The notes under the pieces were generated by a model that searched no databases, was not told where the DNA came from, and worked only from the letters and a program-made list of their open reading frames with translations. DNA of 64,000 bases, taken from an uncultured virus (IMG/VR IMGVR_UViG_3300005201_000009) (lineage: Duplodnaviria > Heunggongvirae > Uroviricota > Caudoviricetes). The DNA lies in IMG/VR virus record IMGVR_UViG_3300005201_000009; one strand, written 5' to 3'. Below, piece by piece: positions 1,217-64,000 of this stretch. The position numbers were made by a program, and so were the translations under genes. The number at the start of each line of letters is the position of its first letter. The stretch's first letter is position 1.

Positions 1217-1546
1217 TTACATCGTCTCAATAGTTTCAAATGAAAGCCCGGTTACAGCGCAGATCTTCTCAATAGAGTCGCCCATCTCCTTCATCTTGCG
1301 GGCAATCTCAAGTGCCTTTTCGGATTGGCCCTCTGCCAAGCCCTTGGCACGGGCCTCGTCTTTGAGATCGTCTATCATCTGGTTGTAGTCCATTTCGTAT
1401 TTAATTCGGATCATCCGCTTTATTGCTCTTGCATGATCGCGGCTTATTCCATTCTTTACTGCGCGTTCCGCCCACATAATACCTTCCTCCTTCTGACAGA
1501 GCTGCTTGATCAGCACCGACACTTGTTCCTCATGCCGGTATTTCAT
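1217..1546 (-). pseudogene. C-terminal fragment of an Rpn/PD-(D/E)XK 'transposase_31'-type protein
   Basis: Typical C-terminus 'ARAKGLAEGQSEKALEIARKMKEMGDSIEKICAVTGLSFETI'; the nuclease domain is absent. Confidence 0.65.
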
Positions 1547-20300: not shown

Positions 20301-21100
20301 AAATAGGCGACATTATAAAAGGTAAGCCGGAAAGTGATAAAGAATACTATGTTACTAATTCGGCGATGACTCGGGGCGCGATTGTCAGCTTCTCCGACCT
20401 ATATGCGCGTGTGAGGGTCCTTGCGCACACGGGTGGTGTAATAGGCACACATCAGGTTAGGAAGGATCTGCTTGAGTCGCTGTTTGAGGTTGTTGGGCAC
20501 ATAATGCCTTTTGACAGCCTCGAGGTTGCAGCACTACTCCGTGACGGTGATAAGAAAGCAATCTCAGACTACGATTTGAGCGCTGGTAGCCTACGTGATA
20601 GTAATTTGCGCGGCGCAGACTTAAGCGGTCTTAACCTAATCAATGTTGACTTGAGAGGGGCGTGCTTGCAAAATGCTTGCTTACGTAATACCCATTTGAG
20701 TCAGACCAAGTTGGAGTACAGCAATATGGAGTGCGCGGATTTAAGCGGTTCTTTTTTACGCGGTGTCAGCCTGCGCGGTGTCAATTTACGCAAAGCTAAC
20801 TTAAGCTACTGTGTTTTAGTAAACGCAGACTTGCGGGAAGCATTTTTACAGGGTGCTAACATTATTGGCGCTGATATAGACTTTTGCTGTTTGCCGTTAA
20901 GCTGCGGCGGGCTCGAGTGGCACATTGACAAGCACACAGCCCGGCAGCTCGCTTACCACTTCTGTTCTATGCGGTGTGATGAGGTCGAATATATTAAACT
21001 GCGGGATATTATGTTGCCATTTGCTAATCAATTTCATCGCGTGGATGAGTGCGGAGTGTTGGGATCAGTCGAAGAGGTGAATAATGAAAGCACTGGATGA
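20297..21100 (+). CDS. Pentapeptide-repeat protein
   Basis: A(D/N)Lxx repeats; C-terminal 'ADIDFCCLPLSCGGL'. Confidence 0.85.
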   Translation: MKIGDIIKGKPESDKEYYVTNSAMTRGAIVSFSDLYARVRVLAHTGGVIGTHQVRKDLLESLFEVVGHIMPFDSLEVAALLRDGDKKAISDYDLSAGSLRDSNLRGADLSGLNLINVDLRGACLQNACLRNTHLSQTKLEYSNMECADLSGSFLRGVSLRGVNLRKANLSYCVLVNADLREAFLQGANIIGADIDFCCLPLSCGGLEWHIDKHTARQLAYHFCSMRCDEVEYIKLRDIMLPFANQFHRVDECGVLGSVEEVNNESTG

Positions 21101-27647: not shown

Positions 27648-27672
27648 TCCAGCACTCCTACAAACAATGTCC

Positions 27673-27708
27673 CACCGTACCACGAAATTTCAAAAAGTCA
27701 AGGGTTTT
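27673..27708 (-). promoter_or_regulatory. Conserved late-module promoter, copy 1 of 5
   Basis: AAAACCCTTGACTTTTTGAAATTTCGTGGTACGGTG. Confidence 0.7.
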
Positions 27709-27734
27709 AAACACGATTTTTTACTTTTACCCGG

Positions 27735-32774: not shown

Positions 32775-32801
32775 AGCTCCTCCTTGAAAATAGGGCTCAG
32801 T

Positions 32802-32837
32802 CTTTGTACCACGGAATTACAGAAAGTCAAGGGTTTT
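32802..32837 (-). promoter_or_regulatory. Conserved late-module promoter, copy 2
   Basis: AAAACCCTTGACTTTCTGTAATTCCGTGGTACAAAG. Confidence 0.65.
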
Positions 32838-32863
32838 GGGAACGAAAGTTGGAAAAATTCGGG

Positions 32864-47072: not shown

Positions 47073-47080
47073 ATCTGCGC

Positions 47081-47116
47081 CACCGTACCACGGAATTTCC
47101 AAATGTCAAGGGTTTT
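47081..47116 (-). promoter_or_regulatory. Conserved late-module promoter, copy 3
   Basis: AAAACCCTTGACATTTGGAAATTCCGTGGTACGGTG. Confidence 0.7.
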
Positions 47117-47139
47117 GCGATCTTTTTTTGAAAATATTT

Positions 47140-49682: not shown

Positions 49683-49967
49683 CTACGGTTCCTCCTGAAA
49701 CGTTCGCCGCCTACGCCCCACCATCGGCACGTCTTTACGAACGCGCGATATCTGCACCCGCTCAACGTCGGGCCGGTCTATGCCTGCAATATAGATAGCC
49801 TGCGCGTCATTGGGCGCAGCATACTCCTTCGATATACCATCCTCAAAATCAATGCGGTATATATTGCGCATAAGTACTACGCGCTCCATATGCCCAGAAT
49901 CGCCCGGCTCGTCGTCAGGGCCGGAGATAATAATATCGTCGCCAGTATTGGTGTCGTTATCAGCCAT
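49683..49967 (-). CDS. Hypothetical protein (apparently leaderless)
   Basis: ATG 5 nt after the -10 hexamer of promoter copy 4. Confidence 0.55.
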   Translation of the reverse strand: MADNDTNTGDDIIISGPDDEPGDSGHMERVVLMRNIYRIDFEDGISKEYAAPNDAQAIYIAGIDRPDVERVQISRVRKDVPMVGRRRRTFQEEP

Positions 49968-49971
49968 GCCG

Positions 49972-50007
49972 CACCGTACCACGGATTTTCAGAATGTCAA
50001 GTGTTTT
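49972..50007 (-). promoter_or_regulatory. Conserved late-module promoter, copy 4
   Basis: AAAACACTTGACATTCTGAAAATCCGTGGTACGGTG. Confidence 0.7.
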
Positions 50008-50040
50008 GGGAACGAATTATTTATTTTTAGACAGAAGAAG

Positions 50041-52635
50041 TCAGGGTGCCCTCTTAATGAAGGCGCCGGGGTCGATTTCAACATAGCCGCCGTCAAGGCG
50101 TTTAACCGATGGCGTTTTAGCCGCGTCGTCACGCAAAGACGCCCTTTTATCCGCGATGAGCTTACGTATATCGGCAAAGTCGGGGTGCGTGGCCACAATA
50201 TGTACTGCGGCGTAGCGCGCACCGTCCAAGGTGTGAATAGGACTGCTTTTACCTACTCCTTTTGGGATTTTGTTGTCCTTGTCCCGCATAGCAAGATTAA
50301 GTGCCTCGGCAACGTCTTTGGCAATTTTACAAACTATGAACCGACTCAGATAGCATAACTTGCTGACCAAGAAACACGAATCCTCTACCAGCGGGCTTTT
50401 TTTCTTGTAAATAATCTTAATATTGTACCGACGCAACTCTTGCGCCATAGACGGGAATGTGTCCTTTATAGTCACATCCGGCAGCCATTTGATTTCCTGC
50501 TCGGGAAAGTCGTGCCGCACAACACTCGCCGCGTCGTCGAGACTGGGGAAGTCATAGTGTTTTATGCAGTATATCACACCGCCGCGCACGACGTACGCAG
50601 AGCCGCGATTATAGCCGGTATTCACATCCTGCGCCCAATAAACTACCTCATCAGGCCTTAATTTAATATCCAAATCATAACCGACGTAATTGCGCGCCCA
50701 ATCAAACCCCGGGATAACCCGCCCCTTGGCAATCGATAGAAACTCGCCGTGCATGAACACCTCGCGCTCCTCGGGGGTGTACATTTTGTACATGTCTTCG
50801 ATGAGACTTTTTGGTAAAAACGGGTTGTGCTCAGTCCACCCTCTAATAAGAACGAACGCGATACCCGTCTTCTTAAAATGACAGTATACCGCGTATAGCC
50901 CCTTCTGGCCTTGTGATGTGCTCGCAAAACAATTATGGACTAGAAACTTGTTTGTAAAAAACTCGTGCTCGTCTTCAACAGTTATATCATACACGGACTC
51001 TAATTTTCGCAGCGCGTGTAGGGGAACAAGTTTTTGCATGCCTTCTTTTACGTGTCCTAAAAGCTTTTCCACAAATGATGCACGCTCTATCCTCAAAAAA
51101 CTTTCTTCCAAACCCAGGTTTATCAATTGTTCTAATCTTATCACGGCATCTCTGAGAGCAGAAGTGAGACGGCAATTTTGATATATATTTTGTTTTACAA
51201 ACAAAGCACTCACATTCGTAGTGTCCCGCACCTCTTTCTCTGCTTTTTTCACGAGCGGCTTCTTTAGCCTGCCTGTTCCTACGAAGCCTTCTACAAGTTT
51301 CACACCTAACACGCTGCTCCGCGCCTGTCGTAAAAACAGCCCTACAATCGACACAAACCTTCCTAATCGAGACTTTGTTCCAAACACCTGTATAGGTTCC
51401 TTGACTTCGCTTTTTGTCGCGTTCTTTACACTGGTTTTTACGTCTGACTGTCTGGCATCTATCACACCTAATCTTGTTTTTTCCGTCTGTGATAACCATT
51501 TCTCCACAATCAACACAAGGTCTATAGTAAAAGCTCTGTTTATTTCCTCCGTGATATACGTTGTGTTGGTGCTCTGTAACGCAGTCCAAGTTTTCAATAG
51601 TGTTATTAGCTGTGTTAAAATCTTTATGGTGTATAACCATTCCTGCTGAAACCGCCCCGTGAACGCTTTCCCATACAGCCACATGCAGTGCCTTAGATCT
51701 TTCACCCTTAGACGCAATAGACCTGTAATATCCTTGAGGCTTTTTAGGGTTGTGTTGCCAATAGTATCTAACCCCATTAAAAGCAACAGAGCTTCGTTTG
51801 TCTTTTTCAAACAATTTTGTATCTTTTGCCACTGCTTTACTCTCCGTAATGAAATTGATAATAAATGCTCATTGTTCTTTATCGTTCCAACTTCTTGCCA
51901 ATCTTTTATGCTCTCATTCCACACTGTGTGATCTGGTGTTAAGGGAACGCCGTGAACACGAACTATCTCTCGATACCCTGTGTTGTACTTACCGATAATC
52001 CTTCGCCATCCGCGTCGAGTAAGCACAAAATCCCCAACACTAATGTCTACTATGCGGCATAAAAAAGGATCGGTCAACCCGTATATACGTTTTACATCTA
52101 CTTTTCTACATATAATCTTTGCATTCCCTCCCAGGCAAGTGCACGGCCCCCGCTCACCAGGTATCACCTGCCGGCAGCGCTCGTTTAGCGCTTTGGTCGC
52201 TTCCAGCATTTTATCCGTCGTAAGCTCGTCCGCTTCCTCGACGTAAATCTTATGCACATCCAGCCCGAATATCTCGCCGGGGTTCTCCAACGGCTGCAAC
52301 AGCACCGTCACCGTGCCGATAGTGAAGTAGTTGAATTTCTTATTCTCGATATACGGAGTCTTGCTGTCGTCCAAATACTGCCGGAAATATATTAAAAACG
52401 TCTTTTCCAAGTGGCTGAGCGTGATGCCGCAAACCATGAGACGCACGTAGTCACCGGCACGGTCTTTCTTTCCTTGAAGCCTTTTTACATCGTACAGCAC
52501 ATGTAAGACGTTGGCGCGCGTTTTACCTGCCCCATAACCGCAACAAAGGAAGAACCACTTTACTTTATGAAATAAAGACGGCGCTTGCATATAATAACTT
52601 TGGTGTGGTAAAACGATCGCTCTTTTCACGATCAA
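50041..52635 (-). CDS. terL: Terminase large subunit containing an intein
   Basis: 'LPHQ', Walker A 'GYGAGKT', Walker B 'IYVEEADE', 'NPFLP', nuclease 'QDVN...HTLDGARY'. Confidence 0.92.
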   Translation of the reverse strand: MIVKRAIVLPHQSYYMQAPSLFHKVKWFFLCCGYGAGKTRANVLHVLYDVKRLQGKKDRAGDYVRLMVCGITLSHLEKTFLIYFRQYLDDSKTPYIENKKFNYFTIGTVTVLLQPLENPGEIFGLDVHKIYVEEADELTTDKMLEATKALNERCRQVIPGERGPCTCLGGNAKIICRKVDVKRIYGLTDPFLCRIVDISVGDFVLTRRGWRRIIGKYNTGYREIVRVHGVPLTPDHTVWNESIKDWQEVGTIKNNEHLLSISLRRVKQWQKIQNCLKKTNEALLLLMGLDTIGNTTLKSLKDITGLLRLRVKDLRHCMWLYGKAFTGRFQQEWLYTIKILTQLITLLKTWTALQSTNTTYITEEINRAFTIDLVLIVEKWLSQTEKTRLGVIDARQSDVKTSVKNATKSEVKEPIQVFGTKSRLGRFVSIVGLFLRQARSSVLGVKLVEGFVGTGRLKKPLVKKAEKEVRDTTNVSALFVKQNIYQNCRLTSALRDAVIRLEQLINLGLEESFLRIERASFVEKLLGHVKEGMQKLVPLHALRKLESVYDITVEDEHEFFTNKFLVHNCFASTSQGQKGLYAVYCHFKKTGIAFVLIRGWTEHNPFLPKSLIEDMYKMYTPEEREVFMHGEFLSIAKGRVIPGFDWARNYVGYDLDIKLRPDEVVYWAQDVNTGYNRGSAYVVRGGVIYCIKHYDFPSLDDAASVVRHDFPEQEIKWLPDVTIKDTFPSMAQELRRYNIKIIYKKKSPLVEDSCFLVSKLCYLSRFIVCKIAKDVAEALNLAMRDKDNKIPKGVGKSSPIHTLDGARYAAVHIVATHPDFADIRKLIADKRASLRDDAAKTPSVKRLDGGYVEIDPGAFIKRAP
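50932..52137 (-). mobile_element. Intein (402 aa) in TerL
   Basis: Block A C-LGGNAKI, block B 'LTPDH', block F 'VYDITVEDEHEFF', block G 'LVHN/C'. Confidence 0.9.
50987..51832 (-). CDS. HNH homing endonuclease with multiple CxxC Zn fingers, out of frame inside the intein
   Basis: 'LHVAVWESVHG...IHHKDFNTANNTIENL...H...H'; GGAG RBS before GTG. Confidence 0.85.
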   Translation of the reverse strand: MAKDTKLFEKDKRSSVAFNGVRYYWQHNPKKPQGYYRSIASKGERSKALHVAVWESVHGAVSAGMVIHHKDFNTANNTIENLDCVTEHQHNVYHGGNKQSFYYRPCVDCGEMVITDGKNKIRCDRCQTVRRKNQCKERDKKRSQGTYTGVWNKVSIRKVCVDCRAVFTTGAEQRVRCETCRRLRRNRQAKEAAREKSRERGAGHYECECFVCKTKYISKLPSHFCSQRCRDKIRTIDKPGFGRKFFEDRACIICGKAFRTRKRRHAKTCSPTRAAKIRVRV

Positions 52636-53350: not shown

Positions 53351-53358
53351 AGTGCGGA

Positions 53359-53394
53359 CACCGTAGCACGGATTTTCAAAAAGTCAAGAGTTTT
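53359..53394 (-). promoter_or_regulatory. Conserved late-module promoter, copy 5
   Basis: AAAACTCTTGACTTTTTGAAAATCCGTGCTACGGTG. Confidence 0.7.
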
Positions 53395-53472
53395 GAGATC
53401 AAATTATTATTCCGCACAACACGCGCTATTTAGCACAGAATGTTAACAACGCGCCGCAAAAAATACACAAAA

Positions 53473-53539
53473 GGCCGCCGGAACTCCGCAGATACTACCA
53501 AGAACAGAGGCTGCCATAAAGGCAGCTTTTCCGGCGGCC
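53473..53539 (-). ncRNA. Structured three-way-junction RNA 2 (C4/CI-like candidate; also terminator-like)
   Basis: 11-bp outer stem GGCCGCCGGAA/TTCCGGCGGCC, two inner hairpins, TTTTGT tail. Confidence 0.5.
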
Positions 53540-53546
53540 AGCACAA

Positions 53547-55064
53547 TCACGAAGCCTTCTCCTCCGGCTTAACGTACGGCCCGAAGTCCCAGCGCTCGCA
53601 CCCAATAAATAGGTCCTCGTCGTTTTTGAGTGCTGTAATCGTACGCATTATACCGTAAATCCTTATCTGCTCATAGACTCGGTGTATCGCGGGACTGCTA
53701 AACGGCCAGTGCGCCGGCTCCGGCGGAAACGGATCTTCGTATTCGGGATCGTCGAACAGGCTACCGTTATACGGATTTCCATCGTACGGCAAAGTGGGCA
53801 GCAAGCGCCACTCGTCGCGCCCCCTGGTCGGGCACGTGGTGGTAGGCGCGTTTGCCGGACCGAAAGGCGGCCTGCCTTCATACATCTCCAAAATTTCCTC
53901 TTGTATCCTGTCGAGATCTTTTTCACTCAAACTGCCGTCCTCGTTTTCACGCGCCTTATACAGCACGTCAAGGTTCTCCGACCATTGCATGTACTCCTCC
54001 CGCACAAATTTAAGCGCGTCAAGCGAGTCTTTTACCGGGCGTCCAAGCTCTGCGGCAAACTCCTTTACGTAGTCGATAAACTCCCATATCTCCTTCTTCT
54101 CCTCGTACTTCGCGCGATCCGCCAAAGCCTTCTCGCGCTTCGCCTGCTGCGCCCGCTCCTTCGCCTCGGCGCGCACCTTTGCTTTCTCCGCGTTTCTCCG
54201 CAGCAACACTGCCGCCGTGTCCGTCTCGTCGTCGTCCGACGGCACTTGCGGCTTAGCGGGGCTCCTGTCCTCAATCATGCCGGTCTTAGGGCCTTCCAAG
54301 AATTTCTGGTTGGCGTTCGCCATTATCATCGACGATTTCCACTTGCGGTAGTCGTCGAACCTTATTTTTTCGCGGCGTCCGAATCTGCCTAACAGCGGCA
54401 TAAACTCCTTTTCCAGCGAATCCGTTATGTACGGCGACAGCACGTTATATTTATCCAAACTCGCCGGCGCGATGCGCAGGAACTCGCCGTTGGCGTCGTA
54501 AATGACCAGAAACCGTTTGCGCCCGTTTACGCGATCCCACAGCGCGTACACCCTCCCACCGTCCTCCTTTTCAGTGTAAATCCTCTCCGTAATTTTCGGT
54601 ATGCCAATAATACCCGACTCAGGGAACGCCTCGTGCATGCCGCTGATGCCCAGGTTTTCGATATTCTGCACGTCTTCCTTGCTCATTATCACATAGCCTT
54701 CCTGCTGCAAGCGCTCGGCGAACATCTGGCGGTAACGGGCGTCGATGAGCTCAGGGGTGTTCCACGCCTTTTCGATTTTTAGCAGGTACTGTGTTATTTG
54801 CCTGCCTTTCTCATTCCGTTCACTTGCAGCCAGTAACTTAGCCCTGTCCACTGCGAGCAAGTAGTCTTTTTCTGGCCTTCCTACCTCACCGGTACTTTCC
54901 GTAGACGCTTCAAAGAAATCGTCTCCCTCAACAAATTCGTACTCCTCTACGCGAATACTAAACCACTTCCTAAACTCCGTCTTAACCCCAAGCGCTTCAT
55001 GCAGTCCACGGGCGCTCACTAGCTGTTTATTGTCCTGTGCAACAACCTTAATCAATGCATCCAT
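53547..55064 (-). CDS. Antirepressor (AntA/AntB N-terminal domain) with a long C-terminal extension
   Basis: 'LVSARGLHEALGVKTEFRKWF..R..EY.FVEG.DF...GRP.KDY.L..D.AK...EKAWNTPE'. Confidence 0.85.
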   Translation of the reverse strand: MDALIKVVAQDNKQLVSARGLHEALGVKTEFRKWFSIRVEEYEFVEGDDFFEASTESTGEVGRPEKDYLLAVDRAKLLAASERNEKGRQITQYLLKIEKAWNTPELIDARYRQMFAERLQQEGYVIMSKEDVQNIENLGISGMHEAFPESGIIGIPKITERIYTEKEDGGRVYALWDRVNGRKRFLVIYDANGEFLRIAPASLDKYNVLSPYITDSLEKEFMPLLGRFGRREKIRFDDYRKWKSSMIMANANQKFLEGPKTGMIEDRSPAKPQVPSDDDETDTAAVLLRRNAEKAKVRAEAKERAQQAKREKALADRAKYEEKKEIWEFIDYVKEFAAELGRPVKDSLDALKFVREEYMQWSENLDVLYKARENEDGSLSEKDLDRIQEEILEMYEGRPPFGPANAPTTTCPTRGRDEWRLLPTLPYDGNPYNGSLFDDPEYEDPFPPEPAHWPFSSPAIHRVYEQIRIYGIMRTITALKNDEDLFIGCERWDFGPYVKPEEKAS

Positions 55065-55135
55065 AATTCTTCTCCCTAATTGTTTGTAATTTTGCGGCAC
55101 AACGTACCGCAGTGAAATCGTGCGGGCATAGAAAA

Positions 55136-55206
55136 GCCCTGGTGAACCTGTAAGCCTAGCAGTTTAACAGGAGGCTACCTTGAAAAGGTGGGCCGATCAC
55201 CAGGGC
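55136..55206 (-). ncRNA. Structured three-way-junction RNA 1, candidate antisense regulator of ORF 55464-56255
   Basis: 10-bp outer stem GCCCTGGTGA/TCACCAGGGC, two inner hairpins; two boxes complementary to the mRNA leader at 56283-56298 and 56260-56268. Confidence 0.6.
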
Positions 55207-55463
55207 AACTTACCCCAATTATATTGTTCCCGGCAAACTGCCGGGGCCGGTTGTTCTATTGCGGCGCATGACGCACTGCAATACCGAGGAGCAGGGTTAT
55301 ATTTATTACTATTATAGTAATATATCCCAAATCGCCCAAATCGCGCGCGGTTAACGGTTTGAGCGAGCGCTCCCACAATTCCGGGTAACTTTTTGAGCAG
55401 GAGAATCGCCGGGGGCTTATGGCGTCCCTAAACCCCTAGCGACTCTCCTTTCTTAAAAACTTC

Positions 55464-56255
55464 CTAGCCTACATACTCCCTCAACAACTCTACAAACTCC
55501 TTACAAGTCAACGATTCGGCATGGGGGAATTCGCGGAATAGGTTAGCCGCGAACCATGCGATTTTCTTTGTCGCCGGGTCTTCACGCCCGGCGCGGCTGG
55601 TTATGTAACCCACCGATACATTGGCGGCGCATAGTTCTTTGATCCTCCTTTGTACCGTGGGGGATAACCGCGCGGTATAATCCGCGAAAAACAAGCGCAA
55701 GTTTTGCCTTACCTGGTCGCGGGCGTTCTGTAGCTCTTTATCCATCATCAACTGCGCCGGGTCTTCTTCTGTCTCCCGTGACTCCCATGCTGTATACAAT
55801 GTCCCTAGCACCTTCCCCATTGACCGTGTCGATCGGGTTGCCTTGTCTACCATTTGCGGATAGTGCAGCGTCAACATATCATTGTTGACATTGCCGATCA
55901 TATAATCCGGCGTTGATTCATTGCCTGCGTTGATCCGGTTGATCCGCGCTACCTCACGCGCTGTATTATCCGCGCTTATCGATCGGGTGATGCGACAACC
56001 GCGATCGCCCACTTGCTCAGCCTCTAGCGCGTCCAGTGCCTGGGCGTAACTGTAGGCCGTGCCCCTGCGCTTTGCGGCCTTGAGCGCGCCGATAGTATAC
56101 ATAATTGCGGCGTCCTGGGGATCGATACCCCTTGATTCCGCGATCGCCTCAATCTTCCCCCGCCGGGAAGAATCCAAAAACAACAATGCACACGCTGTCA
56201 CACGTGCCATGATCCGGGGCGGCAATTGCCGCATTTGGTTGGTACTGCTACTCAT
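55464..56255 (-). CDS. Hypothetical regulator, possibly a divergent sigma-factor-like protein
   Basis: GGAGG RBS; 'DPQDAA' and 'EDPAQLMMDKEL...RLSP..QRRI' resemble sigma region 2 and region 3/4 boundaries. Confidence 0.4.
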   Translation of the reverse strand: MSSSTNQMRQLPPRIMARVTACALLFLDSSRRGKIEAIAESRGIDPQDAAIMYTIGALKAAKRRGTAYSYAQALDALEAEQVGDRGCRITRSISADNTAREVARINRINAGNESTPDYMIGNVNNDMLTLHYPQMVDKATRSTRSMGKVLGTLYTAWESRETEEDPAQLMMDKELQNARDQVRQNLRLFFADYTARLSPTVQRRIKELCAANVSVGYITSRAGREDPATKKIAWFAANLFREFPHAESLTCKEFVELLREYVG

Positions 56256-56472
56256 AATAGTAACCTCCGATTTAGAATTCGATAAACTGCTAGGCTTATC
56301 TATCTATCATTATTGCAAATTTTTAATTATTTGTCAAGCGCAAAAACACAAAAAAGTGAAAATTTTTAAATTATTTTTAAATGGGTAAATTGGAGAAATT
56401 GGGGGCCGCCGGGGACATGGGCCGCCTATGTCTCTTGTGTTACAAACTCTATCATAAACAGCCTTGAGCCTA

Positions 56473-56570
56473 GGGGGTTTCGGTTTTTTCCCGAAACCCC
56501 CCTCATTCTGCCAAACCCTACCGGGGGTTTCGGTTTTTTTCCCGAAACCCCCCTCATTCTGCCAAACCCT
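56473..56570. repeat. Tandem duplication (period 50 bp), each unit a hairpin
   Basis: GGGGGTTTCGG-T6/7-C-CCGAAACCCCC-CTCATTCTGCCAAACCCT, two copies. Confidence 0.85.
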
Positions 56571-56774: not shown

Positions 56775-56912
56775 TTTGTACCTCCTATGCTTAATACGCG
56801 CCGAAACAGCGCGGTGTGTAAAAATAATTGCAAAAAAAGACCGTGGCAAAAAAAGCGCGGAATCCGGCAAAAAAACAAAAAAGATGCGGTTTTTCGGGGT
56901 TTTTGAGTTGAT

Positions 56913-57495
56913 TTTAACTCTATTAAATTATGTTATGGGTAACAATCACGATTATGCTTTTTTTAAATAACTAGTTTTTCATTTTTTGGGTGTGGTGGGT
57001 GACTTTTCCACAAGTTTTTAAAAATTTCTGTAAATTTCCCTCCGTGCTACACACTACACTATAGATACTACTACTACACACTACACTATAGATACTACTA
57101 CTACACACTGCTACTACGGAAATAAAGCCAATATTTTGTTATGCGACACGCACAAAAAAATAGTTAATTTTGGTAGCTTGTATAGTATTCCTGACATTTT
57201 GTTAAGTAGTTTTTTGTCAAGAAAATGATAATCTTTAAAAACGGTGACTTTTCCACAAGTTTTTATATTTTTAGGTGATTTTACACACCTTGAGTATTTT
57301 ACGCGTAAAGGGTGTGACAATAAAAAATAAAATATTTTCGCTAAAGGGGTTGACACAATAAAATATTTATGATACCATAATAGCGGAAAGTTACATTTTC
57401 CAGTTTTTGAACCCCCAAAATAGAGCAAAAAAAGAGACATTTTTAAAAAAACATAACCGTGATTGTTACCCATAACATAATTTAATAGAGTTAAA
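56913..57495. repeat. ~55-bp inverted repeats (56913-56967 / 57441-57495) flanking an AT-rich segment
   Basis: TTTAACTCTATTAAATTATGTTATGGGTAACAATCACG (38 bp exact) plus a 17-bp extension with 3 mismatches. Confidence 0.85.
57047..57109 (+). repeat. 27-bp tandem repeat, 2.3 copies
   Basis: CTACACACTACACTATAGATACTACTA. Confidence 0.85.
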
Positions 57496-57643
57496 TTATG
57501 TCACGAATATATAAAACCAATGATAATTTTTACACACGGCGCGTATTTAAAGCGTTAAAGGCATAAGCAACAAAAACAGTAATAATTTTTTACACACCGC
57601 GCTATTTTGGCGCGTTAGGTATATCAAGATTAAGGAGTAGATT

Positions 57644-57883
57644 ATGGCAAAAGAAACAAAAAAAGGCGGCTTTAGGGATAATAAAGCCCCTACCAGCTTA
57701 TCGGTTATTATCACCGATAGTAACGGCAATGAATGGGGTCGGCTTTATGCGTCGCCTAAAGACTTCTCTACCGGGTCGGTAGGGTTTTATGCGACGGGCA
57801 AGGCGGTCAATCCGGCCAATCCTGAGGCGAAATATCAGGCGGGGCTTACGTTTACCTTGTGTGGTAGCAAGCCGGCGGCGTAG
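57644..57883 (+). CDS. Small basic hypothetical protein (first early gene)
   Basis: AAGGAG RBS; 'PKDFSTGSVGFYATGK...YQ.GL..TL.GSK'. Confidence 0.7.
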   Translation: MAKETKKGGFRDNKAPTSLSVIITDSNGNEWGRLYASPKDFSTGSVGFYATGKAVNPANPEAKYQAGLTFTLCGSKPAA

Positions 57884-58058
57884 CAGTATAGGGGCGCGTC
57901 TATGCGTGACAGTGTAGCGACGTGATTGTGTAGCGGCGTAATAGGTTAAGTAACGAAAAATCAAGGCAGAATAACTACTCAACGATTTTACATGGCAGGG
58001 GTCGGACTCTGCGCTGCCTATGCCGGAGGGGAAACACGGTTTTAATGCCTTCCCCCAG

Positions 58059-58108
58059 GCCGCCCCCGGGGTGTGATTAAAGAGACACCGCCGGGGGCGG
58101 CTTTTTCT
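58059..58108 (+). terminator. Rho-independent terminator
   Basis: GCCGCCCCCGG...CCGGGGGCGGC-TTTTTC. Confidence 0.75.
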
Positions 58109-58201
58109 TCTGTTTTTAATTTTTAAGAAATATTTTTACACACGGCGCGTTTTTCCAGCGGTATGTATGTATCGCGGATCAAAATAGGCAGGAGGTATGG
58201 T

Positions 58202-58474
58202 ATGCGGAAGGTTCACAAAGAGGCGGTTGAACGGTTTATGGCCGGGGAGCCCGGCGTGGTCGGGCCGCGCGACAGAATTGTTGCGACGCGGAATAAGGAC
58301 ATAGCGGCGTGGGAGTATCACGGTAGCGCTATCGTTAAGAGGGATACCGGCGGAGTCTACGTAAGCTATTGCGGCTGGTTTACGCCGAGTACACGGGATC
58401 GCCTATACGCGATTTGCGATTATCTGGGTGTTCCACGGCCCGTTAAGACAGACGGCTATATAAAGGTGGCGTGA
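58202..58474 (+). CDS. Phage early hypothetical protein
   Basis: 'YHG..I......GW.TPSTRDRL.A' pattern; RBS. Confidence 0.65.
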   Translation: MRKVHKEAVERFMAGEPGVVGPRDRIVATRNKDIAAWEYHGSAIVKRDTGGVYVSYCGWFTPSTRDRLYAICDYLGVPRPVKTDGYIKVA

Positions 58475-58497
58475 AGTAATTACTACGGAGGGAGTCT

Positions 58498-58713
58498 ATG
58501 AGCAGAAAATATCCATCCAGCGAAATGCTGGGCATAGCGACGGAAATTGCCAGAAGGGAAATTCACTGCCGGCTACGGTGCAATATGCCCGGTTGCGGCA
58601 GGGCGTGCTACTGGTCGGGCAAGGCGTATTTAGAGCGCCTGCCCTTGATCCAGCAGGTGGAATATAACGCGTACATGAGAGCAAAGCCCATGATCGACGC
58701 GGCGACGGCGTAG
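58498..58713 (+). CDS. Phage early hypothetical protein
   Basis: GGAGG RBS; 71 aa. Confidence 0.55.
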   Translation: MSRKYPSSEMLGIATEIARREIHCRLRCNMPGCGRACYWSGKAYLERLPLIQQVEYNAYMRAKPMIDAATA

Positions 58714-59292
58714 CGTAGCTATGCGCGGAATAATGCAAGGCGTAGGAGAAAATTTTACACACCGCGTGATTTTCGCGCGTTAAAGGTATAGGAGGTTTGC
58801 GATGTACAAAATAAGCATTAAAGCGGAGAAAGGCAGGAAGAAATACCGCAAAGCGTTGCGGTTTATGAGCTGGGCAAGCGCATGCGACTTTTGCGCCCGC
58901 GTGGGGATTAGGCCAAAGGCGATTAAGGTAGGAGGTACGGCATGAGGTGCGCAAAGTATGACGGCAAATACTACGATTTATGTACTCATATGTACTGCAT
59001 TGTAGCGTATGACAAGGCAAAGGGCAGGTATCGCTTTACATGGAGCAACAAACAAGATCGATTTGTACGTGTTCGGGAGGCGGGCAAATTCTTGAGGTGC
59101 TATTTTAAGGAGGCAGTATGAAGTACGAAGTATCGGTTATTTACACGGGGAGCGTGAGTTGCGGCGTCGAGGCGGATTCGCGGTCTGAGGCGCTGGTCAA
59201 GGCGGTCCAGGAAGCGGTGAAAAATATCCCGCAGGAGATACGCGACCAGGTGGATTTGCGGCCTTATTTTGTTTCGGGTTGAGGGGGATGAT

Positions 59293-59466
59293 ATGACAGA
59301 CAAGCAAAAAAGAATATATGACGCTTTGGTCGCTATGGATTCCGACAACGTGCTCAATTTTATACTGGATTATCATGGCCGGCAGATATTTAGCAATGAC
59401 TTTTATGAGCACCTTGTCGATGAGGGTGTCATTGAGATGGAGGGCGATGAAGATGACGGCGAGTGA
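59293..59466 (+). CDS. Small acidic early protein
   Basis: RBS; D/E-rich C-terminus. Confidence 0.55.
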   Translation: MTDKQKRIYDALVAMDSDNVLNFILDYHGRQIFSNDFYEHLVDEGVIEMEGDEDDGE

Positions 59467-59725
59467 ACTAAAAGCGCTCTACTGCCGGCACTGCCCCGGC
59501 GGGCATTTTTTCGACCGTAAAACCATGAAGTTTTTCGGCGACACGATGGCGAATTTCGCCGTTCGCGATGTGGGCAGGGTAAAGAGCGGCTATGGCAAGG
59601 GCGCAAAGAAGGTAGAGGCGGTCGTACTGTATCGCAAAAGGCCGAATAGAGGCGGGCTGCACGGGGATGTGGCGCATTTTCGCAAAGACACCGGGCAGGT
59701 GATATACCATGCCGGGGAGATATAG
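59453..59725 (+). CDS. Phage early hypothetical protein
   Basis: 'HFFDRKTMKFFG' motif seen in phage early genes. Confidence 0.65.
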   Translation: MTASELKALYCRHCPGGHFFDRKTMKFFGDTMANFAVRDVGRVKSGYGKGAKKVEAVVLYRKRPNRGGLHGDVAHFRKDTGQVIYHAGEI

Positions 59726-59807
59726 GGGGCGGCTATGAAAAACGGGTTGTTGGAATAATTTTTACGCACGGCGTGCATTTTGCGCGTTGTAAGCATAGGA
59801 GGCGCGT

Positions 59808-60035
59808 ATGGAGGACGATGTACTTGAGCCGCAAGAAGAGGACTATATAATCTATGACACCGGGCCGCTGGGCAGTATGTGTGGCGTCGGCGTGTACGGA
59901 GGCAAGCAGTTAGGCACTTTTCTTTCTGCTGAATCCGCCGAGGCGTTTATTAAAGAGACGATGGAGACAGACGACTATTATCCGAATACGTGGCGTATGG
60001 ACGATCACGGCGGATACATGCTCGTCACAGCTTAA
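59808..60035 (+). CDS. Small acidic early protein
   Basis: AGGAGG RBS after the motif; 'YYPNTW..DDHG'. Confidence 0.65.
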   Translation: MEDDVLEPQEEDYIIYDTGPLGSMCGVGVYGGKQLGTFLSAESAEAFIKETMETDDYYPNTWRMDDHGGYMLVTA

Positions 60036-60083
60036 TTTTTACACACCGCGCTTATTTAGCGCGTAAGAAGTAAGGAGTAAAAC

Positions 60084-60629
60084 ATGGCACATTTTGAGAA
60101 GAGGGTAAACACGCGGAGCCGCAAGGCGATGGTTGAGTTTTTAACTGGGCATTTTCGGTATGACACGATGAATTCGTGTAATGACAGCACGTCATATGCG
60201 CATAACATGAAGATACACAACCTGCCTTTGAGTAAAGAGGAAAAGGACAGGCTGTACGATCTCTTTGATTGCGAGGGCGTGTATGACGATATCAACGAGC
60301 TTATGCGCGACTTTGACAGGGAGCATAGGTACGGGTGGCAGGTCGGCTTTAACGGGCGCAACGGCGGATATTTGGTTCTGTATCAGGGCGGTTTGAGAGA
60401 TGGGCAACCTTACTGTACGCCCGGCAAGAGCACGGATCAAGGCGAGGATTTTGTGGAATGGACGATGTACGACCTGCGCGAGCGGGTGCGGCTGGTGTGT
60501 GAATTCGACCGTTTGGCAGACTGCGTTGTAGAGCAGGCGCGGTATCTGGCGAATACCTACGAGGCAGTGGACGCGGAGGTCATGGTTCCCAAGAAGGTAC
60601 GGGTGCTTGTCGGCAGGGAGGTAGCATGA
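60084..60629 (+). CDS. Phage early hypothetical protein
   Basis: 'FL..HFRYDTMNS.N..SYA.N.K', 'GFNGR.GGYLVL'. Confidence 0.7.
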   Translation: MAHFEKRVNTRSRKAMVEFLTGHFRYDTMNSCNDSTSYAHNMKIHNLPLSKEEKDRLYDLFDCEGVYDDINELMRDFDREHRYGWQVGFNGRNGGYLVLYQGGLRDGQPYCTPGKSTDQGEDFVEWTMYDLRERVRLVCEFDRLADCVVEQARYLANTYEAVDAEVMVPKKVRVLVGREVA

Positions 60630-60886
60630 TGGGTAATGCGTTAAGCGCGATGCTGGCGATAGGAAGTTATGCCAAGCGCAGTATGGGCGGCGGGATTATA
60701 GCGGACACATTCGAGTGGTGCAAGACGTGCGCCAATGTCAGCCTGCGCGGCGGCGCGAAGTTATCAAATTATGGCGGGGAATGTTGCGGGTTAAAGAAAA
60801 AGCGCGCCGCCGGCAAAGAGTGCGAGTCCTGGGTGCGTATGGGGGACGAATTGGAAAAACTTTACAAAGAGTACGGGTTCATATAA
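60626..60886 (+). CDS. Cys-containing hypothetical protein
   Basis: ATGA overlap; CxxC. Confidence 0.55.
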   Translation: MMGNALSAMLAIGSYAKRSMGGGIIADTFEWCKTCANVSLRGGAKLSNYGGECCGLKKKRAAGKECESWVRMGDELEKLYKEYGFI

Positions 60887-60965
60887 ATCAGATATTTTTA
60901 CACACCGCGCGGTTTTTGCGCGTTATAAATGACAACAAAAATCAAGAAAATTAAGGAGACTCATT

Positions 60966-61787
60966 ATGGACTTTAACATGAATAGCGGATTGCTAAACGT
61001 GCCACAGCCGTGCTGTTATTGGGAGTTTGACGACTACCTATACGGCCTTGAGCAGCGGGAAGATGAGTGGCGCAAAGAATGTGCAGAGGAAGTAGTCGAC
61101 GCGATGGTAGATGGCAAGCCGGTGTTGCAAACGCGTCGTATGGACTTGCCGTCGTGGCATGAGGAGTACGACTGCCCGCAGGAGTGCATTCTTGATTGGG
61201 ACGGGGCGCAGAAGGTGATAGCAAAATGCTGGCTGGATACGCTGGAAGACTGGATAGCCGAGCGGTTCAGTGACGAGGGCTTTGAGGGGGATATAAAGCT
61301 GGCGTTCAAGGGCGTCGACTCGCCGAGGGAGTATAATTTCAGAGGCGACGAGTGCGACTTTACCATGTCCATATCGCTGGGGACGCTGGCGCATATCGTA
61401 GGCCAGTGCCTGGTGACGTACCGGGCGGGCTTTAGCGATTATCTGGCGAGGGCGCATTCGAGCCGCGACGGGTATATGTCGTATATATCCAATAGCGTGT
61501 ACGACTACGACGACATGTGGGCGCTGCTGGCGCAGGACGGCGGCGAGTGCGACGCGGATGACATTAAACATCTGGTATGGGTATGCCTTGACTACTGGCT
61601 GTTCGGCATTGAAGACATGGAGAACGGCGATAAAAACGAACTGGACGGCGACGGCATGGAGAAGCGGTTCGGGAAGAATCAGGACAAGTTTAGAAGCTGG
61701 CTATGGGACAAGGTGATGGACGCCGAAGGCAACGGGGCATTTAACATGCTGATGGAATACCGGCCAAAGGAGGTAGTGGGGGCATGA
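60966..61787 (+). CDS. Very acidic early protein
   Basis: 'SPREYNF..D', 'SRDG..S'; D/E-rich. Confidence 0.7.
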   Translation: MDFNMNSGLLNVPQPCCYWEFDDYLYGLEQREDEWRKECAEEVVDAMVDGKPVLQTRRMDLPSWHEEYDCPQECILDWDGAQKVIAKCWLDTLEDWIAERFSDEGFEGDIKLAFKGVDSPREYNFRGDECDFTMSISLGTLAHIVGQCLVTYRAGFSDYLARAHSSRDGYMSYISNSVYDYDDMWALLAQDGGECDADDIKHLVWVCLDYWLFGIEDMENGDKNELDGDGMEKRFGKNQDKFRSWLWDKVMDAEGNGAFNMLMEYRPKEVVGA

Positions 61788-62104
61788 CGGTAGAAATAAG
61801 CGTTAATAGGGTTATTGATGAGCTGGTGCCAAGGTTCGACGATATTGAGGCGTATCACCGCATACCGCGCAGGCAGTACAGGGATGAAAATCCGGCGCAC
61901 TACCGGCTGTACCAGGCGTGCGAGCGGGCGCACGGCGAATTGAGGCTTGCAGCATGGATGTTAAATGTGCCCTGCAACGTGATATACAGCGTAGTGCTGA
62001 CGGCGCGGCGGTGGTATAACCGGACGAAGTGGGAGCGCTATCTTCCCGAGGCAGACGCGGAGCGGTTGTGGAAGCTGGCAGTTGTGAATAATAAAACGGC
62101 GTAG
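61784..62104 (+). CDS. Phage early hypothetical protein
   Basis: ATGA overlap; 106 aa. Confidence 0.6.
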   Translation: MTVEISVNRVIDELVPRFDDIEAYHRIPRRQYRDENPAHYRLYQACERAHGELRLAAWMLNVPCNVIYSVVLTARRWYNRTKWERYLPEADAERLWKLAVVNNKTA

Positions 62105-62191
62105 ATTCTTTTCTTCTGTTTATTGAAAATCTTTAATTTATTTTTACACACCGCGCTATTTTGGCGCGTTAAGTATGTAAGGAGGGTAACA

Positions 62192-62737
62192 ATGCGTGAA
62201 CTAAACTGTCCGAACTGCAAACGCGATTTGGAAGCGTGGAACAACCGTCCCGATTTGTGGATTAACTACTGTCCGGCGTGCGGCGAAAAACTGCCGCAAA
62301 TGGAAGTAGACGCACTGCGTCGGTTAAGCACGGGCCAAGAGATAGTCGACAAGATACGCGGGAATGTGCTGGACATGCTGGACAACTACAGCGACGGCAT
62401 AAATGCCGACGAGCTGGCGCAAAGGGCGTGGGAGTCCGAAAATTGCGACGGGGTTGTATTTTACTCGAACTATGGAGCAGACAACTTTGTATGCCGGCAT
62501 ATGCAGTGGGTCGACGGCGCGATGGAGTATTGCTGTGACAATTTCGGGTCGGATCATTACGTAAAGATGAGGGCGGAATGTAACGACCGGTTCTTGGTTG
62601 CTGCGTTTATCACGGCGACAGAGATTTATCTGTATAACCAGCTAGGCATTGATCAGAACGAGGGCGTGCTGTCCGAGGAGCGTATTCAGGAGATCAGGCG
62701 AATGGTTGAAGAAAAAGATTATAAGGAGGAATGGTGA
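62192..62737 (+). CDS. Zn-ribbon plus acidic domain protein
   Basis: CPNC...YCPACG; AGGAGG RBS after the motif. Confidence 0.65.
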   Translation: MRELNCPNCKRDLEAWNNRPDLWINYCPACGEKLPQMEVDALRRLSTGQEIVDKIRGNVLDMLDNYSDGINADELAQRAWESENCDGVVFYSNYGADNFVCRHMQWVDGAMEYCCDNFGSDHYVKMRAECNDRFLVAAFITATEIYLYNQLGIDQNEGVLSEERIQEIRRMVEEKDYKEEW

Positions 62738-62961
62738 TGGGGAACAGTATGGCATTGTCTTTTGAGAAGATAAAAATGCTGGAAAAGCACGCGGCGGTAA
62801 TGGGACCGCTCACAAAATTGTTTAACGATCGGTACACGTCTCTAATGCCGGATGTTGAGCGCAATGATCATCCGCAACACTACATGATGGTAAGTACAAT
62901 TAACAAAATGACTGAAATAGCAGATACGCTGTTGCGGATGTTGCAGGAGGGGTATTTATGA
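62731..62961 (+). CDS. Hypothetical protein
   Basis: AAGGAG RBS. Confidence 0.5.
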   Translation: MVMGNSMALSFEKIKMLEKHAAVMGPLTKLFNDRYTSLMPDVERNDHPQHYMMVSTINKMTEIADTLLRMLQEGYL

Positions 62962-63167
62962 AAGAATCGCAGGTTATTATTGCCGTCGAGGGCGGCGTGG
63001 TTGTCGAGGTGTTATCCAATGTGCACGATCTTGACGCGATCATTGTCGACTATGACGCAATGGAAGACTGGGGCAAGGCAGAAAAAGAAGCGGACGGGAT
63101 CAGAGGTTTTGTTCACACACAAAGGGAAGAAGGCAATACGGCGACAGAGTTCGTCGAGATTTGTTAA
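62958..63167 (+). CDS. Small phage protein
   Basis: 'VIIAVEGGVV..V......IIVDYD' motif. Confidence 0.6.
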   Translation: MKESQVIIAVEGGVVVEVLSNVHDLDAIIVDYDAMEDWGKAEKEADGIRGFVHTQREEGNTATEFVEIC

Positions 63168-63177
63168 GGAGGCACGT

Positions 63178-63351
63178 ATGGAAGCCGTATTGGACGAACG
63201 GAACAAGGTTTACGGTGAGGTCGCGGCATTGCTAACGGATATGTGCGTGGTGACACGTCCTTGTAGTGACTGTCAATGGAATGAAGGTAATGGCCAGTGC
63301 AGGGCGGTAAGGGTACGGGACATGTTACACAGGCTATTGTTTGGCCGTTAA
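63178..63351 (+). CDS. Small Cys-containing protein
   Basis: AAGGAGG RBS. Confidence 0.5.
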   Translation: MEAVLDERNKVYGEVAALLTDMCVVTRPCSDCQWNEGNGQCRAVRVRDMLHRLLFGR

Positions 63352-63360
63352 GGAGGCATT

Positions 63361-63591
63361 ATGGCAAATATAATCAAGTGCGCCGATTGCGGCGCGGAAT
63401 TGGACGAAGAAGAAGTGAAAGAGAATTGTGGCTACTGCGCCGCGCCGCTTTGCCAAAAGCCGCTATGCCCTGTGTGCATAGACCGGTATCTTTTGGTATC
63501 AGCAGGGCAGCATATATGCAAGGAATGCGCGGAAGAGTACGCGGCAGAAGGGTTTGTTGTCGAGACGAGTACGGAGGCGGTATGTGCATAG
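63361..63591 (+). CDS. Zn-finger protein
   Basis: Four CxxC pairs; AAGGAGG RBS. Confidence 0.6.
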   Translation: MANIIKCADCGAELDEEEVKENCGYCAAPLCQKPLCPVCIDRYLLVSAGQHICKECAEEYAAEGFVVETSTEAVCA

Positions 63592-63965
63592 ATGAGCTTG
63601 TTGATTGTGTAGACTGCGAAAGCTACAGAGTATGCCCCGGGCATATCAGAGGCGATCCTGACGACTGCTACCCTACGGAGGCAACGTGTACCGAAGGTGC
63701 GCCGGAGAACGGTCCGTGCGCGCGAATGCTGGACGCGATACGCGACAAGATTGACGGCGACCATGTTTGGCAAACAGCAGTAGGTCGGTTCTCTACAAGG
63801 GAGCAGTTGCAATACGAGCAGGGCGATAAAGACGATATTATCCCGGACAGTTTTCGGCGTTTTGATTTTTCTTCTGCCCCTTATTGGTGGCTGTCGGGAT
63901 TTGACGTGAGTACCGTAAAGCCGTACCAAAGCGAGTTGGAGGTTTTTAATGCGGTATTTATCTGA
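63582..63965 (+). CDS. Cys-rich acidic hypothetical protein
   Basis: GGAGG RBS; ends just before the last motif copy. Confidence 0.55.
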   Translation: MCIDELVDCVDCESYRVCPGHIRGDPDDCYPTEATCTEGAPENGPCARMLDAIRDKIDGDHVWQTAVGRFSTREQLQYEQGDKDDIIPDSFRRFDFSSAPYWWLSGFDVSTVKPYQSELEVFNAVFI

Positions 63966-64000
63966 AATATTTTTACACACAGAGGTTATTTTGGGCGTTA

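Follow-up and report, generated by a model that had tools for sequence, protein, structure and literature searches.

Does a small folded RNA control a phage gene that lies 1.1 kb away on the same strand? The question is raised by a stretch of 64,000 nucleotides (nt) from an uncultured virus of the Caudoviricetes (IMG/VR record IMGVR_UViG_3300005201_000009; this whole stretch is hereafter the window). In it a first-pass annotation, made from the sequence alone, had described a structured minus-strand RNA (here sRNA-1, for small RNA) with two segments complementary to the leader and the Shine-Dalgarno (SD) sequence of the open reading frame (ORF) at 55464-56255 (here ORF263). Here we present a comparative analysis of this RNA, its leader and their counterparts in related phages. 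The explanation that we consider probable, taken as a whole, is that sRNA-1 is a small antisense RNA gene of ~80 nt on the strand of its target, whose product acts in trans: the loop of its hairpin H2 would recognise the phage's own leader, a CCUCC-containing junction would cover the SD sequence, and translation of ORF263 would be blocked.

Two boxes of the RNA match two boxes of the leader

Every letter of the proposed pairing was confirmed by direct reading. The leader of ORF263 consists of TAAGCCTAGCAGTTTA (56298-56283), 14 nt, GGAGGTTAC (56268-56260) and then the ATG. On the plus strand, positions 55151-55166 again read TAAGCCTAGCAGTTTA, followed after a gap of 3 nt by GGAGGCTAC at 55170-55178; the minus strand of sRNA-1 accordingly carries GTAGCCTCC at 55178-55170 and TAAACTGCTAGGCTTA at 55166-55151. 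The RNA is complementary to the first leader box (box A) at 16/16 positions and to the SD box (box B) at 9/9, with one U-G wobble, and the two pairings stand in antiparallel order. Box A is the best same-strand complement of the H2 loop in the whole 64 kb. Its 16-mer is found exactly twice in the window at up to three mismatches, both copies being exact; shuffled sequence gave a mean of 0.55 matches at the same stringency, and the expected number of exact second copies is ~3e-5 (128,000 positions / 4^16).

The minimum-free-energy fold of minus-strand 55206-55136 is a three-way junction (-34.8 kcal/mol, z -2.5), as the first-pass annotation had proposed, and covariation in relatives (see below) agrees with it. 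The H2 hairpin has a large loop, which holds most of the 16-nt segment (box A') that is complementary to box A. Box A of the window leader itself folds as a small 5'-terminal hairpin, for which one G-U pair is needed. The promoter of the ORF263 unit ends 10 nt before box A, with the predicted start a few nt before the box, and a promoter scan of the minus strand between 53300 and 56700 gave no other promoter-like site. Because this near-consensus promoter ends 10 nt upstream, box A is predicted to lie at, or within a few nt of, the 5' end of the mRNA.

Pairing is kept at related loci while its sequence changes

The search for relatives of ORF263 returned 86 proteins, all from metagenomes, and a Pfam domain is present in none of them. 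From 41 of these proteins alignment A1 was made, with which loci were fetched from metagenome and viral contigs; each leader was then compared by script with the DNA 3' of it. The window sRNA-1 and the downstream partners from four loci (L001, L003, L004 and L007; L008 is the same contig as L004) formed alignment A2, and a covariance model, R1, was built from the sRNA alignment; its E-values are rough, as the calibration was shortened. Homologous RNAs are present at six other metagenomic phage loci, which makes seven loci in total, six of them with a testable leader.

When each of the six testable loci is searched over its full length, the leader site always gives the longest same-strand complement of H2; it lies 41-100 nt ahead of the start codon of the ORF263 homologue. 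Cognate matches measure 16 nt in the window, 12 in L001, 13 in L003 (plus an SD 9-mer), 15 in L004, 12 in L007 and 14 in L142, each of a different sequence, against only 4-8 nt for the 30 non-cognate combinations of H2 and leader. In RNAduplex, five cognate pairs scored -43.7 to -46.2 and non-cognate pairs -22.3 to -39.7, the cognate partner being the best for each of the five. L142 served as a blind test: the locus was fetched through its TerS-like protein (alignment A4) and the RNA was then found with R1 (41 bits). The sole H2 complement of at least 12 nt in this 7.8-kb locus is a 14-mer located 41 nt before the ATG of a 322-amino-acid (aa) ORF and behind TTGACA-17-TATTAT; the ORF is a distant ORF263 homologue (hhalign: 99% probability, 22% identity).

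The setting of the leader box is also constant. Five relatives with a leader have TTGAC[AT], 17 nt and a -10 hexamer at the equivalent place before it, and in the leaders examined the distance from the -10 of a near-consensus promoter to the start of the box is 5-10 nt. In 6/6 leaders the box folds into a 5'-terminal hairpin (stem 5-6 bp, loop 6-8 nt; with an insertion in L003), and the complement of this hairpin forms the top of H2. We propose that this is the geometry of a loop-loop 'kissing' start.

For the second box, CCUCC is kept in all six loci, with 8-10 nt of complementarity centred on the SD sequence. The anti-SD segment GGAGGUUAC faces GUAGCCUCC with one U-G pair in the window and L001, and pairs perfectly with GUAACCUCC in L003; in L007, GGAGGUUGC faces GCAGCCUCC, an A-U to G-C compensation. 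In L004 and L142 a G-rich SD sequence pairs with CCUCC via G-U, L004 adding ACA/UGU on the other side. Because the imperfect positions are all G-U in this orientation and would be C-A on the other strand, the SD box behaves as RNA pairing. The compensatory changes in related phages that had been named as a check are thus present, the pairing being kept by co-variation wherever a leader could be tested.

The fold of the RNA is conserved

Applied to five sequences, RNAalifold again gave the three-way junction; of its 27 pairs, 11 carry compensatory changes. Among nine R1 matches, 93.6% of cells are paired, 15 of the 22 pairs have changed on both sides and all 10 pairs of the closing stem co-vary; none of 500 shuffles reached the observed pairing values, and slid registers were only 25-50% paired. 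The MAFFT/RNAalifold analysis, which is independent of the fit to R1, agrees with the nine-match structure. The match in L005 is weaker (24.7 bits). As judged from this covariation, the folded RNA is real and conserved.

Wider searches delimit where it occurs. A blastn search of 55100-56400 against 50,697 phage records gave no match; ORF263 as a single query found no relatives in viral contigs, and alignment A1 found none in 185,579 species genomes. A pattern scan for the RNA in viral contigs returned 11 loci, of which two were true and on already known contigs, and nine were rejected as chance. A strict pattern scan of genome contigs returned 119 stretches, about the chance expectation; among the 80 of these 119 that were scanned with R1 there was no true member, the best reaching 24.2 bits without H1.

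Transcription signals and gene order

A full sigma-70-type promoter motif, TTGAYW-17-TATNNT, ends 6-11 nt before the closing stem in five of the seven loci (Table 1), and in four of these five its -35 lies within the preceding coding region. The L142 RNA has an extended -10, TGnTATAGT. At the other end, a U-run comes after the closing stem, with 4-6 U in five of the RNAs with a testable leader and as CUUCUUUU in L142, so that a terminator-like stem and U-run end all seven RNA copies. We read the sRNA as an independent small gene whose predicted terminator also closes the unit upstream.

The RNA lies 3' of ORF263 in 7/7 loci, 1.1-2.4 kb from its target in the relatives. In L001, L003, L005, L007 and L142 a spacer of 31-67 nt separates its start from the last stop codon of the unit. 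In 6/7 loci its neighbour is an antirepressor-like gene of the AntA or Bro-N type. By its gene order, the window looks like the L004-type layout plus an added ant-and-RNA cassette.

Table 1 Features of the window, and promoters and gene orders at the RNA loci
Feature	Position	Strand	Description
sRNA-1 (~80 nt)	55130..55211	-	Covariation, fold, 90 bits with covariance model R1
sRNA-1 closing stem	55206-55197/55145-55136	-	10 bp
sRNA-1 H1		-	
sRNA-1 anti-SD	55178-55170	-	
sRNA-1 H2 loop, box A'	55166-55151	-	
sRNA-1 U-run	55135-55132	-	
-10 hexamer of sRNA-1 gene	55218..55223	-	TATAAT, 11 nt before closing stem
Target box A	56283..56298	-	16 nt at predicted 5' end of ORF263 mRNA; 16/16 complement of sRNA H2 loop
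Target box B	56260..56268	-	SD GGAGG with UUAC flank, ends 4 nt before ATG; 9/9 with sRNA 55178-55170
ORF263 unit promoter	56309..56337	-	TTGACA-17-AATAAT, TG before -10; 11/12 consensus positions
ORF263, target gene	55464..56255	-	Conserved all-helical two-domain protein (AF2 pLDDT 79.9)
AntA-domain antirepressor-like gene (ant)	53547..55100 (longest ORF)	-	PF08346, 6.7e-20; PHROG anti-repressor Ant families
sRNA-2, diverged paralogue	53463..53545	-	2 nt after ant stop; R1 30.1 bits, E 3e-6
sRNA promoter, L001			TTGACA-17-TATGTT
sRNA promoter, L003			TTGATT-17-TATGTT
sRNA promoter, L004			TTGATT-17-TATATT
sRNA promoter, L007			TTGATT-17-TATGGT
sRNA promoter, L005			TTGACT-17-TATAAT
Gene order, window			ORF263 - sRNA-1 - Ant - sRNA-2 - TerS-like gene - TerL
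Gene order, L004			ORF263 - RNA - TerS-like gene - TerL, no ant
Gene order, L001, L007, L142			ORF263 - AntA gene - RNA - TerS-like gene - TerL
Gene order, L003, L005			ORF263 - Bro-N antirepressor-like gene - RNA

A conserved non-coding element stands right after the ORF263 stop in 6/6 loci (window 55335-55452, minus strand; L001 4776-4880, L007 1911-2025, L142 1930-2040, L004 4840-4945, L003 2630-2720). A long hairpin that differs from locus to locus comes first, and after it CCTGY and then TTTACCTGAAAA-like, AAC.GTT and CGCGC motifs; an attempt to derive a consensus structure gave none. The element may serve in processing or as the promoter of ant.

Proposed mechanism and alternatives

We propose that the sRNA would be transcribed from its own sigma-70-type promoter and would end at an intrinsic terminator formed by its own closing helix, at the 3' end of the ORF263(-ant) unit. 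The H2 loop, with its phage-specific 12-16 nt, would first contact the complementary 5'-terminal hairpin of the leader loop to loop; pairing would then spread until the conserved CCUCC junction and its flank cover the SD sequence, and ORF263 translation would be blocked. By analogy with P1 C4 and OppZ, ant might be silenced as well, as the protection coupled to translation would be lost and Rho termination or decay could follow. The variable loop and box would together set specificity, and each phage's RNA would therefore act only on its own kind of leader. The sequences, the covariation of the structure, the co-variation of cognate loops and leaders, the promoter and terminator motifs and the gene order are observed; expression of the sRNA, repression as its direction, two-step pairing, polarity on ant and a biological role are inferred. 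This role may be that of a lytic-cycle timer or threshold on ORF263 and ant, or an immunity-like hold, both proposed because no lysogeny module was found: neither an integrase nor a repressor nor a partition gene is present among the 68 window ORFs (PHROGs and Pfam; the window lacks ~4.4 kb of the contig), and an 87%-complete 50-kb relative has no tyrosine integrase or resolvase. The first-pass annotation had likewise seen no CI-like repressor in the window; its 'lysis/lysogeny switch' finds no footing in this gene content. In a further-reaching version, immunity or commitment would be determined primarily by the sRNA itself, as a loop-coded switch made of RNA alone that silences both ORF263 (as master regulator) and the antirepressor; the hypervariable kissing loop would sort related phages into mutually exclusive 'immunity types', and sRNA-2 would be a captured specificity against a competitor's leader. 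We regard this version as unlikely.

Several observations weigh against translational repression by a trans-acting sRNA. Whole-molecule cofolding gave a net gain of only 0 to -10.9 kcal/mol, and in L004 the very stable closing stem of the sRNA keeps the bipartite duplex from being the minimum-energy state; in the RNAalifold structure part of the anti-SD is hidden in the bases of H1 and H2. The RNA itself, its ends and its strand are predictions. The plus strand of the region folds slightly better (-37.3 kcal/mol, z -3.5) than the minus strand, so that the strand call rests on the U-run, the promoters and the target complementarity. Inspection for promoter elements before the window sRNA-1 gave a perfect TATAAT and no -35. 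The window ant lies 3' of the sRNA-1 terminator, unlike its position in four of the six other loci, and in L001, L007 and L142 a gap of 170-324 nt stands between ORF263 and ant, for which reason their co-transcription is an assumption. The seven RNA loci are few, mutually related and all from uncultured phages, R1 found no RNA beside the distant ORF263 homologues of L006 and L009 or in the short contig L002, and the nine-match alignment was fitted to R1, which favours the structure.

The close spacing between the last stop codon and the RNA, at five loci where it is the only visible terminator of the unit, suits an element that acts in cis: the 3' end of the ORF263(-ant) mRNA might pair with its own 5' end and thereby shut off or stabilise each transcript on its completion, or the RNA might be released by processing, as OppZ and CarZ are. 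That sRNA-2 lacks a promoter fits this too, and the abstract of PMC7398697 documents autoregulatory sRNAs from 3' untranslated regions that pair with their own operon. The data are hard to square with a mere 3' end, however, because a full -35/-10 pair ends just before the stem in 5/7 loci with the -35 inside a coding region in four, and we hold a cis-acting element to be quite unlikely. Pairing might instead activate or protect, by opening or capping the 5'-terminal hairpin so that the mRNA is stabilised or its translation permitted, like IsrK on orf45-anrP of Gifsy-1. Such a role would suit a variable box at the extreme 5' end of the mRNA, a usual entry site of decay enzymes, and an SD sequence that is mostly unpaired in leaders folded alone, so that structure may leave little to repress; a precedent exists in the activating phage sRNA of an antirepressor-like operon (PMC12197685, excerpt). 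The conserved CCUCC, with its 8-10 nt of complementarity to the SD sequence in every testable locus, is by contrast a signature of translational repression, and occupancy of the SD sequence cannot aid ribosome binding; activation therefore appears very improbable.

Two further explanations dispense with regulation by an RNA duplex. The boxes could be DNA operators, inverted 12-16-bp sites at the promoter and 1-2 kb downstream that are bound by one protein, for example ORF263, and that co-vary with its specificity. In favour of this, the leader box overlaps the predicted start of transcription, where operators are typically found, the boxes show partial dyad symmetry (5-6 bp arms around 6-8 nt), and the sequence of ORF263 diverges among loci. 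Yet the downstream copy is always placed in the hairpin loop of a covarying RNA structure, antisense and next to an anti-SD, the hairpin of the window box needs a G-U pair, the imperfections of the SD box are G-U on this strand only, and Foldseek found no DNA-binding fold in ORF263, all of which makes operators very unlikely. Chance complementarity beside an ordinary terminator might be entertained from the window alone, where ~0.5 16-nt inverted repeats of any pair are expected in 64 kb and many longer imperfect inverted repeats are present. The match joins two specified functional places, though, with the second box in the correct order, and chance is effectively refuted because the match recurs with different sequences in 6/6 loci against 4-8 nt for non-cognate combinations; we assign it next to no probability.

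Comparison with known regulatory RNAs

The first-pass annotation had likened the RNA to C4 of phage P1, and topology and two-box logic do agree. C4 of P1 and P7 (Rfam RF01695, clan CL00128; immI operon c4-icd-ant) is a small RNA too, of 77 nt in P1, with a long closing stem around a short-loop and a large-loop hairpin (Rfam consensus and P1 fold). Its two boxes pair with two sites, one at the ribosome-binding site, in the leader of the gene that opens an antirepressor operon, and the P1 record annotates c4 with 'repression of icd ant translation'. The C4 boxes differ between related phages and set specificity, as is proposed for the boxes here. C4 is cut out of its transcript by RNase P processing. 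The AntA gene beside the RNA is the strongest link to C4-type systems; in P1, C4 controls an antirepressor-type gene, and in P1/P7 heteroimmunity the C4 boxes set the specificity (PMC12197685, excerpt).

The differences from C4 are as clear. C4 is located upstream of its target in the same transcript and has no terminator, whereas the RNA here is downstream, with a predicted promoter in 5/7 loci and a terminator-like stem and U-run in 7/7. The box layout is mirrored: in C4 the loop box b' binds beside the SD sequence and the junction box a' binds the distal site, whereas here the distal 5' hairpin would be bound by the loop and the SD sequence by the junction. Box length is 7-8 nt in P1 and 12-16 plus ~9 nt here, and the P1 operon opens with icd (73 aa), whereas ORF263, an unrelated protein of 263 aa, stands first here. 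Of the features of the C4 family, the closing stem with two hairpins and the two-box leader pairing are therefore found, and the upstream position in the transcript is not.

Both families that had been suggested for an Rfam scan, C4 and isrK, were searched and neither matches. The C4 model reached its gathering threshold (45 bits) nowhere in the whole window and, at E<=10, matched neither a stretch of 1.7 kb nor the 121 nt that surround the RNA; isrK (RF01394) has none in the window or in five related loci; and no Rfam family at all matches the window or, at E<=1, those five loci. As a positive control, P1 c4 scored 68.8 bits (E 2.7e-13) with the C4 model, which found c4-a1b1 too, and the isrK model gave a weak match of 35.1 bits beside P1 c4. 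R1 scored only 3.4 bits on P1 c4. By its predicted fold and pairing, the RNA would work like C4 and is not a member of the C4 family: we take it for a new RNA family with its own form of a known kind of control.

Position links the RNA to OppZ and CarZ of Vibrio cholerae as well, which are encoded at the 3' end of the operon they regulate and share its terminator; position, shared terminator and complementarity to the own operon are all found here. OppZ and CarZ are RNase E processing products with no promoter of their own (PMC7398697, abstract), in contrast to the predicted promoters in 5/7 loci here, though the window sRNA-1 and sRNA-2 are without a -35. They serve host metabolic operons rather than phage modules, and the abstract of PMC7398697 describes no bipartite pairing by kissing loop and anti-SD.

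P22 sar is a cis-antisense RNA that overlaps ant. Like sar and like IsrK of Gifsy-1, the RNA here is phage-encoded and would act on antirepressor-type genes; unlike sar, it is on the strand of its target, 1.1 kb away and without overlap, and IsrK differs in that it activates rather than represses. Both are phage sRNAs that pair with an antirepressor or antirepressor-like mRNA and control its synthesis (PMC12197685, excerpt).

Two-box complementarity to a leader is also known from the small processed immunity RNAs CI of P4 and CA of N15, which function with no protein repressor. Each is cut from the leader of the lytic or anti-immunity operon under its control and acts on that operon by ending transcription prematurely, whereas here the anti-SD points to translational control and the RNA would be a separate gene at the 3' end. 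To our knowledge, the understood trans-acting two-box phage RNAs are essentially C4 of P1/P7, CI of P4 and CA of N15, all from enterobacterial phages. In the literature searched, judged on titles and abstracts, we found no published description of this RNA.

The RNA adds a C4-analogous family, missed by sequence models, from uncultured phages, and its layout differs from that of C4, with a predicted promoter and terminator of its own at the 3' end of the controlled unit. Its six different loop and leader pairs are a natural experiment on which nucleotides carry specificity, and R1 is a ready covariance model for annotating phage metagenomes. The RNA also gives a handle on the ORF263 protein family, which has at least 86 members and no annotation, and such naturally orthogonal RNA/leader pairs could serve as translational repressors in synthetic circuits.

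The target gene and the antirepressor-like gene

The first-pass annotation had called ORF263 an upstream regulator and a putative 'sigma-like activator'. Neither label is carried by a match to any family or fold. A profile search of ORF263 against the PDB gave nothing below E 0.38, and Foldseek on the PDB, with the full model and the C-terminal domain, gave nothing at E<=0.001; rows for sigma-28, FixJ and MarR appeared only at E 1.3-7 (sigma-28 and sigma-S at E 4-7 for the full model; FixJ, at E 1.3, as best row for the C-terminal domain). BFVD and the PHROG families gave no match, the ESM Atlas no usable one, and a wide VIA-align search reached a best Z of 6.1, which is noise of coiled-coil type. 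Pfam on 41 ORF263 members at E<=1 found no family common to more than three, and none of the 78 matches of the ORF263 profile among 5.8 billion proteins has a Pfam domain.

ORF263 heads the leftward packaging and structural arm of a ~68-kb phage contig; standing first in the late arm with a host-type promoter before it, the gene would suit a late regulator as far as synteny goes. The ant gene, which the first-pass annotation does not mention, stands directly 3' of sRNA-1, and its likely start is the ATG at 55064, behind AGGGAGAA. Further 3' follow a 229-aa protein, a large terminase with an intein-like insert, a portal, a protease, tail genes and an endolysin. The large terminase ORF (50041-52635, minus strand) has 864 aa, the TerL of relatives ~476 aa; Pfam places Intein_splicing at residues 232-568 with E 2.6e-5, below the curated cut-off.

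A late-promoter-like motif, AAAACCCTTGACTTTTTGAAATTCCGTGGTACGGTG, occurs in five copies in sense on the minus strand (27667-27730, 32796-32859, 47075-47138, 49966-50029 and 53353-53416). It is a TTGAC-16-TAnnnT promoter with a strongly conserved spacer, its copies precede late operons, and similar sequences precede the TerS-like gene in L001 and L004. From this synteny the copies are a candidate site for a late activator, possibly ORF263.

A second copy of the RNA

sRNA-2, which is likewise absent from the first-pass annotation, folds as a three-way junction with a U-run (-41.0 kcal/mol, z -4.96), its anti-SD being weakened to CCUCU. Inspection for promoter elements before it showed none, and its loop has no complement of at least 12 nt in the window or in ten related loci. 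In the window it holds the place of the single RNA of L001, L007 and L142. sRNA-2 may be an orphan specificity or a plain terminator, or its target may be a leader that the window does not include. At 57047-57100, a 27-nt sequence is perfectly duplicated in tandem and contains a 9-mer identical to part of the sRNA-2 loop, in the same sense.

Other features of the window

On the opposite side of ORF263, a divergent plus-strand arm encodes a primase, helicases, a DNA polymerase, methyltransferases and a thymidylate synthase, with a pentapeptide-repeat protein at the end of this replication arm (20297-21100, plus strand; Pfam 2.1e-28). Two tandem GC-rich, bidirectional terminator-like hairpins (GGGGGTTTCGG...CCGAAACCCCC) stand between the early and late arms at 56473-56570. 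A cyanobacterial host, considered on account of two GCGATCGC sites, was rejected (2 sites against 2.1 expected).

A motif of ~35 nt, TTTTTACACACCGCGC-N6-GCGCGTTA, occurs in nine copies before early-arm ORFs (57513-64000, plus strand), with a further copy on the minus strand (56796-56830) before a 46-aa ORF. It consists of a -35-like TTTACA and a small GC palindrome, and its copies are probably phage-specific early promoters or operators. The AT-rich control region also has 55-nt inverted repeats (56913-56967 and 57441-57495, 95% complementary), which flank a 119-aa minus-strand ORF with no family match (57114-57473); the segment between them could be invertible or inserted. Towards the other end of the window, a 109-aa fragment at 1217-1546 (minus strand) matches a PHROG transposase family (5.5e-8).

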